Source: a virus (taxonomy: Duplodnaviria; Heunggongvirae; Uroviricota; Caudoviricetes). Taken from it: 5,039 bases of DNA. The position numbers and the translations under genes are program-made. The stretch lies in IMG/VR virus record IMGVR_UViG_2695420685_000008, one strand, 5' to 3'. Of the stretch, positions 1 through 5,039 are shown piece by piece (the stretch's first letter is position 1; the number at the start of each line of letters is the position of its first letter). The notes below the pieces were generated by a model. The model searched no databases. It saw only the letters and a list, made by a program, of their open reading frames with translations, and had not been told where the DNA came from.

Positions 1-3
1 CTA

Positions 4-456
<453 letters not shown>

Positions 457-461
457 AGTGA

Positions 462-466
462 TCCTT
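462..466 (-). promoter_or_regulatory. Shine-Dalgarno (AAGGA) for the 115-aa ORF
   Basis: Minus-strand sequence TAAGGATCACTATG: AAGGA sits 5 nt upstream of the ATG at 456..454. Confidence 0.5.
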
Positions 467-763
467 ACACGTCATATTTGTATATATCGAATGTTAATGT
501 TTGGGCATAAACGCCACTCACTGGAAGATATTGAACGGTGAAAGCGTTAGTACCCGGAATACAGTAAAACTCATTCCAGTACTGACTCACTCGCATTACT
601 GCCAACCAACCCGTTGGACGCATACCCGACCAGGCTACATTCCATGATGTAGTACTACCAGCCGATACATTAAGATTGACTGATCCCATGTACCGCATGT
701 TGTAATCACCAATATCGACAATTAATCGTCCAGATGCATCCCAGCATTGTAAACCCTGTGCCA

Positions 764-764
<1 letters not shown>
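465..764 (-). CDS. Hypothetical small protein (~99 aa), paralogue of the next ORF; candidate tail-tip accessory or host-range protein
   Basis: ORF track gives 465..770 from a GTG; the in-frame ATG at 764..762 overlaps the J stop as TAATG, a typical coupling arrangement. Begins MAQGLQCWDASGRLIVDIGD and contains YCIPGTNAF; both motifs recur in the 115-aa ORF. No N-terminal signal peptide or lipobox. Stop TAA at 467..465. Confidence 0.6.
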
Positions 765-4352
<3,588 letters not shown>

Positions 4353-4356
<4 letters not shown>

Positions 4357-4943
4357 TTGTATCTCCACGTTTGATCCTGATTCACCTGTCCTAATAAACT
4401 AAAGTATTCATCCCCTTTATAGAGAGATTGATATACTGAATTGGCAGCAATTAGTGGTGGCTGTCTGTCCAGCTTCTTATAAATGCTATTCACGTAAACT
4501 GTCATTTCATTCGTTTTTTCATTTGGATCGGCTACTGCCTGAATGTAATCAACAAATCCTGAGAACATCAGCATGGAGTACAATACAGTACTGTTATAGG
4601 GATTCAGGATAACGAGTGTAATATTCATCTGTGCATCTTTAAGGAAGCCCCCTAAAGCAAGTGCTCTTACACTCGTATTCACATTACTAATTTTGAAGTT
4701 AATCGCATCGTTGTTGATCCCCTTCTGTTCGCTGAAAGAAGGCAATGAACCACTAATGATATCGGGAAAACTAATGTACTGGTTGCCATTCAGATCAATA
4801 TCAATAAGTGAATCAGTCCAGTGAAAACCATTTGTACCTTTCGGGAGTACATCAAAACAGGTAACATGCACACCTAAACTCATTACATCCATGACACTGA
4901 GGCGTGTTTTAGTCGTGCCACGAACTAAGGAAGGTGCGAACAA
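4353..4943 (-). CDS. Minor tail protein L-like (tail tip complex); start codon uncertain
   Basis: 196-aa ORF. The segment DLNGNQYISFPDIISGSLPSFSEQKGINNDAINFKISNV aligns by eye with lambda gpL W-QGRQYQPYPIQGSGFELNGKGTSTRPTLTVSN, at a similar distance from the N-terminus. Position directly upstream of the K-like and J-like genes matches lambda order. The ORF-track start at 4943 is a TTG with a poor Shine-Dalgarno; in-frame ATGs at 4892..4890 and 4883..4881 are alternatives. Stop TGA at 4355..4353. Confidence 0.7.
4363..4366 (-). promoter_or_regulatory. Shine-Dalgarno (GGAG) for the K-like gene, inside the 3' end of the L-like gene
   Basis: Minus-strand sequence GTGGAGATACAAATGATG: GGAG sits 6 nt upstream of the ATG at 4356..4354, which overlaps the L-like TGA stop (ATGA). 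Confidence 0.45.
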
Positions 4944-5038
4944 GTCCCTGATATGAGATCATGTTTGTCATCTGGAGCCATGGAACAGGGTTCATCATGA
5001 GTCATCAACTTACCTTCGCCGACAGTGAATTCAGCAGT
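4925..5038 (-). CDS. C-terminal fragment of an upstream gene (N-terminus lies beyond the window end); product unknown, by position possibly a gpM-like minor tail protein
   Basis: Only one minus-strand frame is open through the right edge. Hand translation gives ...TAEFTVGEGKLMTHDEPCSMAPDDKHDLIIGTCSHLP, ending at a TAG at 4927..4925. The other two minus frames hit stops within 80 nt of the edge. Assignment to gpM rests on gene order only; I see no convincing similarity. Confidence 0.35.
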   Translation of the reverse strand, partial: TAEFTVGEGKLMTHDEPCSMAPDDKHDLISGTCSHLP

Positions 5039-5039
5039 A

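Follow-up and report, generated by a model that had tools for sequence, protein, structure and literature searches.

A probable cysteine-free hub protein of an Escherichia coli prophage tail tip and its IS5-truncated copy

Regarding the tail tip of lambda, structural work revealed that residues 154-232 of gpL form a [4Fe-4S] domain with Cys173, Cys182, Cys205 and Cys212, and that this domain and the N-terminus of gpJ are together the equivalent of the HDII-insertion in T5 pb3; the paper leaves the function of the domain open (PMC10721106). The four cluster cysteines are invariant or nearly so in a gpL alignment. In the gene transfer agent RcGTA, g13 (Rcc01696) is a protein of 296 aa, in which an attachment domain (residues 1-142) is followed by a four-Cys iron-binding domain, an oligosaccharide-binding domain and a clip domain (PMC7296036). 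T5 pb3 is one chain of 949 aa containing HD I-IV, and no iron-sulphur cluster is reported for it in the structure literature used here. Hub proteins that are free of the cluster have already been described: Alishewanella phage LSH1 gp25 contains a Cys-free "gpL C*" region, and gp30 of Salmonella phage Jersey is a gpL-like protein that is shortened at its C-terminus, is conserved across the Guernseyvirinae and is homologous to gpL by HHpred with an E-value of 1.8e-14 (PMC13243795). Tam et al. 2013 is quoted in contradictory ways by two of these papers. As paraphrased in PMC10721106, that study presents the cluster as universal among gpL homologues; as paraphrased in PMC13243795, it reports gpL homologues lacking the cluster.

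The stretch of DNA analysed here (the window, 5,039 nucleotides) is the whole of contig CYAQ01000099.1 from E. coli assembly GCA_001277535.1, and its features are collected in Table 1. The core, positions 125-4928, is identical at 4804 of 4804 positions to an intact prophage locus in another assembly (L086), and no match to it was found among plasmids. The left boundary of the core, between 124 and 125, was placed by three-way alignment; the sequence before it matches "IS21-like element IS100kyp family helper ATPase IstB". Position 125 maps to L086 13843, inside a gene at 13512-14159, and the gene fragment cut at this point matches PHROG 4524 over profile positions 1-123 of 230. A 115-aa open reading frame at 109..456 on the minus strand extends from this fragment into the IS sequence. 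As the left end belongs to an IS100/IS21-family element and the right end to IS5, both ends of the contig are IS copies, the contig starting inside the one element and breaking off inside the other, and a short contig between two repeated IS copies is the usual outcome of a break in short-read assembly. The window is thus a 4.8-kb piece of a tail-tip module that is broken at both ends, by IS100 and by IS5. The remaining parts of the prophage may persist beyond IS5.

Table 1. Coordinates of the features in the window
Feature	Position	Strand	Remarks
IS100/IS21-family end: istB 3' end and terminal repeat	1..124	+	megablast 97-98%
DUF8377 gene, 5' part, 332 nt of 215 codons	125..456	-	cut by IS100 after about 110 codons
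Conserved 99-aa gene downstream of the J-like gene	465..764	-	PHROG 7961, 9e-28; 99 aa in intact loci too
J-like central tail fibre/hub protein, 1067 aa	764..3967	-	PF09327 3e-21, PF00041, PF13550
DUF6950 gene, 134 aa	3952..4356	-	PF22262 E 1.5e-10; PHROG 2134; lambda K / RcGTA g14 position
Native hub-gene 3' part	4353..4928	-	191 codons + stop = codons 17-207 of 207; DUF2163/PF09931-like
CTAA, IS5 target site	4925..4928	+	TTAG on gene strand; Leu17 codon TTA and first base of Val18
IS5-derived codons TTG TTC GCA CCT TCC (MFAPS)	4929..4943	-	in IS5 terminal repeat; foreign to native gene
IS5 end	4929..5039	+	megablast; 16-bp terminal inverted repeat 4929-4944 and first 14 transposase codons

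The first-pass annotation reported an open reading frame of 196 codons at 4353..4943 on the minus strand, with a single Cys (in VTCFDV), and suggested that its product would be a cluster-free variant of gpL. Re-reading of the sequence confirmed the length of the open frame and the single Cys. The 5' boundary of this frame, however, is an artefact of IS5. Comparison of the junction revealed that the TTG "start" at 4943-4941 and codons 2-5 (FAPS) are IS5 sequence, and that the native coding part starts at 4928 with Leu17 of a 207-aa protein. The IS5 terminal repeat GGAAGGTGCGAACAAG begins at 4929, directly 3' of the CTAA, and CTAA is the typical IS5 target. The ATG of the IS5 transposase lies at 4997 (MSHQLTFADSEFSS...), reading rightwards out of the window and away from the phage gene. 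In megablast, window positions 4929-5039 matched 1814 E. coli records (about 1500 genomes) at 96-98% identity, annotated as "IS5-like element IS5 family transposase". The element was assigned to IS5 by its terminal inverted repeat with the transposase start, its high identity to IS5 and its abutting of CTAA. On the gene strand, with the slash marking the junction, the window reads ...CACCTTCC/TTAGTTCGTGGC, and the intact gene ...TACTGGAAG/TTAGTTCGGGGC; in the longer form, ...GGGACTTGTTCGCACCTTCC/TTAGTTCGTGGC stands against ...AAGTACTGGAAG/TTAGTTCGGGGC in the intact locus. The exact junction between IS5 and the hub gene had no match in species-representative genomes.

The 196-codon reading frame is therefore an illusion created by an in-frame TTG inside the IS5 terminal repeat. 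No gene call for a 196-aa product was found on record, and the depositor's gene call at this position is a 179-aa "Uncharacterised protein" that starts at the internal Met18. Insertion of IS5 at CTAA after codon 16 removed the conserved N-terminal helix and the native translation start. The loss can be read directly because the core is identical to prophages that carry the intact 207-aa gene: in L086 the gene has all 207 codons and its product starts with MDESILTNTTLLKYWK, continuing after the break point with LVRG..., and the intact allele is on record in 147 contigs. The 16 residues lost include the invariant N8 and the near-invariant L11 and Y14 of the family alignment, and the helix is modelled confidently (pLDDT about 90) in the intact protein. 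Judged from these sequences, the window copy of the hub gene is most likely non-functional. The shortfall of 36 residues that was noted against lambda gpL (196 versus 232 aa) divides accordingly into 11 (net) due to truncation by IS5 and 25 that are a real difference at the level of the family. Being the remnant of a pseudogene cut by an IS, and lying on a short contig flanked by IS repeats, the open reading frame itself matters little; it does carry a caution for annotation, in that a reading frame adjoining an IS end can take its start codon from the IS terminal repeat. The same gene is also found broken after window position 4662 in E. coli 14EC007 (L001 6363-7603) and in a metagenome contig (L094 1-175). 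The break at 4662/4663 leaves a C-terminal open reading frame of 91 aa, and the adjacent element in 14EC007 is annotated as an IS3-family transposase. This break and the IS5 insertion are independent IS hits on one prophage gene in different strains.

The intact locus L086 is part of a siphophage-type prophage of about 30 kb, integrated beside mipA / aldo-keto reductase / aldose epimerase / gapA / msrB-type genes. Its genes follow the order portal, protease-capsid, tail fibre with S74 chaperone, major tail protein, two chaperones, a 739-aa tape measure, a reverse-strand gene, a Dit-like protein (185 aa), the hub protein (207 aa), the DUF6950 protein (134 aa), the J-like protein (1067 aa), the 99-aa gene, the DUF8377 gene (215 aa) and lysozyme. 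The upstream Dit-like gene gave a weak match to PF21430 (the B-domain of pb9). The DUF6950 protein is 134 aa long in every annotated intact locus, and its ATG overlaps the stop codon of the hub gene (ATGA). The J-like protein matches PHROG 31, "central tail fiber J" (1.5e-62), and contains Phage-tail_3, FN3 and Phage_Tail_Tip domains behind a Gly/Ala-rich, hydrophobic N-terminus. Its residues 1-55 (window 3800-3967, minus strand) include a Gly/Ala-rich stretch that recalls the pore-lining "iris/penetration" segment at the N-terminus of the RcGTA megatron. No separate gpI-like gene is present in the tail-tip module. Between the tape-measure and Dit genes, the reverse-strand gene varies among otherwise near-identical prophages, encoding either 159 aa without a domain (L003 8870-9349) or a 209-aa DUF6216 protein (L086 7770-8399); this swappable-looking position looks like a moron-type slot.

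Homologues of the hub protein number 129; nearly all are 203-220 aa long, mostly 207 aa, and they are named DUF2163 by their sources. The open reading frame of the window matches PHROG 2048, "tail protein", with an E-value of 1.3e-24 (residues 42-191 against profile positions 213-361 of 390). The 390-position profile raised the possibility of a parent of about 350 aa with half of it missing, which was rejected since the homologues are 207 aa long. PF09931, "Baseplate hub protein, N-terminal attachment domain", is matched weakly by 57 of the 93 aligned relatives at E<=1, the best at 7.3e-7, and four of the six members scanned individually (P0036, P0093, P0097 and P0099) score 26.7-29.9 bits against the cut-off of 26. 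The window open reading frame and the closest intact allele gave no PF09931 match, and the window allele falls below every Pfam threshold. On the family level, the hub protein probably belongs to the DUF2163/PF09931-like class of hub attachment domains. In 15 distant relatives the hub domain is the N-terminus of a protein of 381-1484 aa, aligned up to about profile position 200, and in the fused relatives of 575-1484 aa the chain goes on past about position 204 into the rest of the hub. Among the relatives, P0157, P0167, P0178, P0181, P0197, P0200, P0215, P0230 and P0244 have the domain as the N-terminal ~185 residues of 840-1484-aa proteins. One HMM-detectable family thus holds both split and fused (T5 pb3-like) hub architectures.

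The first-pass annotation regarded the N-terminal two-thirds of the protein as gpL-like, a view that finds support in the predicted fold and in the gene position and no demonstrable support at the level of sequence. PF05100 matched neither the window open reading frame nor any of the 93 relatives at E<=1. TIGR01600 did not match the hub protein and recovered lambda gpL, the positive control, at 7.2e-99. BLASTP against lambda gpL gave an E-value of 2.6. In hhalign, the hub family aligned to the gpL profile with an E-value of 0.068 and a probability below 1%, in a test of limited power because the gpL alignment is narrow (39 sequences of at least 68% identity); the aligned stretch, G.QY..(F/Y)P ... 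KG ... (V/I)SN, is nevertheless plausible. The family profile found nothing relevant among PDB sequences by hmmsearch, and the Pfam, NCBIfam and PDB-sequence searches with the open reading frame, the intact allele and the family profile returned no match to gpL, g13 or pb3.

An AlphaFold2 model of the intact protein (mean pLDDT 70) reaches block means of 83-93 over residues 1-70 and 81-91 over residues 111-140, and has low confidence (pLDDT 40-60) over the C-terminal 40 residues. Its best fold matches in the PDB are T5 pb3 (7zhj_b, E 1.8e-7) and the hub of DT57C (8hqz_A, 1e-6), with an rmsd of 3.3-3.4 A over about 153 columns. RcGTA g13 (6tba_7A, 3.3e-5), R4C, JBD30, T1, Sf11 and Chi are also matched, as is lambda gpL (8iyk_L, E 1.4e-4, TMq 0.50, 175 columns, for a model of mean pLDDT 70). 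The best 11 PDB matches all come from tail tips or baseplates of siphophages and gene transfer agents, the hub role of the matched chains being deduced from their lengths and from the literature. Chains of Hcp, tail-tube and Dit-like type follow at 1e-3 to 1e-2. In a viral model library, many stand-alone phage proteins of 150-215 aa and T5-like single-chain hubs match the model. Genomic context agrees in that intact loci have the order tape measure, Dit-like, hub, DUF6950 and J-like; the order Dit (~185 aa), hub (~207 aa), DUF6950 (~135 aa) and J-like (1000-1300 aa) was observed in about 70 viral loci and 9 genomic loci, and in practically all loci inspected the hub gene lies between the Dit gene and genes of the K/J type. 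By predicted fold and gene position, the hub protein is the putative counterpart of gpL.

The lack of Cys in the C-terminal third, which had been pointed out for the window open reading frame, was confirmed from the sequence, and the absence of a C-terminal Cys cluster is a real and family-wide property. The alignment of 93 relatives, which extends down to 49% identity, has no conserved Cys column; the most frequent one is occupied in 76%, and past position 140 each protein has 2 Cys at most. When 1.84 billion representatives were searched exhaustively with the profile, this yielded 133 relatives at E<=1e-3, 100 of which are 160-260 aa long. In this distant short group, 79 of the 100 contain 0-1 Cys and none has a C-terminal four-Cys cluster; the four members with 4 Cys have them scattered. 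The end of the protein is itself well preserved. All of the ~130 homologues share the ending ...W(R/K)YK, and the tail ranks with the most strongly conserved segments (A177, A178, N179, S180, V181, Q183, S184, D189, S193, L194, L195, G196, V198, N199, Q202, W204 and Y206). Being Cys-free is the rule in this large family, whose likeness to gpL is confined to fold and position.

The likeness to RcGTA g13 consists of the weak but repeated PF09931 matches, the DUF2163 naming, the fold match, and the shared gene order of Dit, hub, small protein and large J/megatron-like protein with a hydrophobic N-terminus. In contrast to g13, the hub family ends at about 207 aa with a Cys-free tail and is without the four-Cys iron-binding domain; compared with the 296 aa of g13, a length of 207 aa can accommodate no more than some 40 residues behind the attachment domain. 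The DUF6950 protein occupies the position of RcGTA g14 and lambda K, which are NlpC/P60-type peptidases. With lambda gpL the family shares the tail-tip slot, a predicted fold over residues ~35-165 that resembles gpL domain I, and the short motif region in the hhalign alignment, whereas it has neither the [4Fe-4S] domain of gpL nor a match to the gpL family HMMs. T5 pb3 and DT57C provide the best structural matches of the model, but HD I, which in pb3 is part of the single chain, is here a separate protein of 207 aa, and the rest of the hub resides in the J-like protein. Further parallels are Jersey gp30 and LSH1 gp25, in which hub domain I is followed by a short Cys-free tether instead of an iron-binding domain. 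Unlike Jersey gp30, the hub family has no detectable homology to gpL, and in LSH1, unlike here, the domain shares one chain with the remainder of the hub.

Taken together, the open reading frame is very probably a decayed prophage tail-tip gene, the intact 207-aa product of which is a stand-alone "hub domain I" of a split baseplate hub. By reference to the solved tips of lambda, RcGTA and T5, three copies of the hub protein would bind beneath the Dit hexamer in the intact phage and would take alternating places with the central domains of three chains of the J-like protein, forming a pseudo-hexameric adaptor ring. The hub family would keep domain I and have the Cys-free tail of ~40 residues in place of the iron-binding domain, so that a trimeric ring of hub domain I under Dit would be connected to the J-like protein by a tether that has no metal cluster. 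We infer the tether role of the C-terminal 40 residues by analogy: since the fused relatives continue past profile position ~204 into the rest of the hub, the tail may act as a hub linker. The poor monomer model of the tail would be expected if this segment folds against a partner. A broader proposal, for which the balance is even, is that a widespread lineage of ~30-kb enterobacterial prophages has a lambda/RcGTA-style split hub, composed of Dit, a hub-domain-I protein of its own, the small DUF6950 protein and the J-like protein, without any iron-sulphur cluster at the tip, in which the conserved Cys-free tail takes over the structural role of the iron-binding domain of gpL and g13.

A sequencing error or frameshift hiding a Cys-rich C-terminal iron-binding domain is close to impossible. 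The check for such a frameshift, which had been proposed with the first-pass annotation, found no other frame that restores a Cys-rich C-terminus: the other two minus-strand frames contain 19 and 9 stops over 4100-4600, and the stop of the hub gene overlaps the start of the DUF6950 gene (AAATGATG), so that no hidden extension is left. The ending common to ~130 homologues and the complete identity of the DNA to independent assemblies also speak against it. It is quite improbable that the iron-sulphur site has moved to a partner, namely Dit, the DUF6950 protein or the J-like protein. The J-like protein of the window allele does contain Cys at 280, 305, 320 and 400, but in a survey for which viral loci supplied 65-68 distinct sequences per partner, covering the first 800 residues of the J-like protein, C280 alone is near-invariant there (0.98 of 66 distinct sequences), with C320 present in 68% and C305 and C400 each in less than 30%. 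The DUF6950 protein has one invariant Cys (C25 in the 134-aa numbering) across 65 distinct sequences, and Dit has no Cys column of 30% occupancy or more. No conserved four-Cys site was found in these three neighbours within this range, and relocation of the cluster was rejected on Cys conservation. In a modified form of this idea, three chains may share one cluster through a single Cys each.

The other alternatives concern the identity and fate of the protein. That the resemblance to gpL and other hub proteins is spurious, the protein being a second Dit, a tail terminator or a tube-fold protein, is very unlikely. The weak sequence links and the lower-ranking matches to Hcp, tail-tube and Dit-like folds would suit it, but the leading structural matches are all tail-tip or baseplate chains, a separate Dit-like gene lies immediately upstream, more than half of the relatives match PF09931, and some relatives are joined to the N-terminus of a J-like protein or of one as large as pb3. 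A gpL variant of 196 aa that is intact, functional and cluster-free and is encoded as such is scarcely credible. The frame is open from the TTG and the absence of Cys is real, but the TTG and the first five codons lie in the IS5 terminal repeat, identical alleles elsewhere are 207 aa long with a conserved N-terminus, no gene caller has recorded the product, and no gpL-family HMM matches it. It is just as hard to credit that the truncated frame is still expressed, from Met18 or from the TTG supplied by IS5, and now serves the host or acts against phages. Downstream of the IS the frame is undamaged and 100% identical to intact alleles, but identity this complete suits an insertion of recent date better than selection. 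The gene has lost its native promoter, ribosome-binding site and conserved N-terminal helix, the transposase gene of IS5 is directed away from the frame, and in other strains an IS3 element breaks the hub gene at another site.

Preferring the decayed tail-tip gene over these alternatives, the novelty of the finding is limited, because cluster-free hub proteins are known (PMC13243795) and the family has its database names (DUF2163, PHROG 2048) already. The result adds a well-populated group of E. coli/Enterobacteriaceae prophages to the hubs known to work without a gpL-type [4Fe-4S] domain. This addition supports the cluster as a lineage-specific structural embellishment of a hypervariable hub region rather than a universal requirement. 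If the proposal of a cluster-free split hub is true, these prophages would provide a natural comparison system in E. coli for what the gpL cluster is for, a question that the lambda structure paper calls open. The sole match to the hub protein in the cultured-phage collection is a 220-aa hypothetical protein (28% identity) of Escherichia phage DCP80 (PQ671644.1; L002 8929-9591), whose almost wholly unannotated genome of 141 kb is filed under Straboviridae/Tevenvirinae, an unexpected setting for a siphophage-type hub protein.
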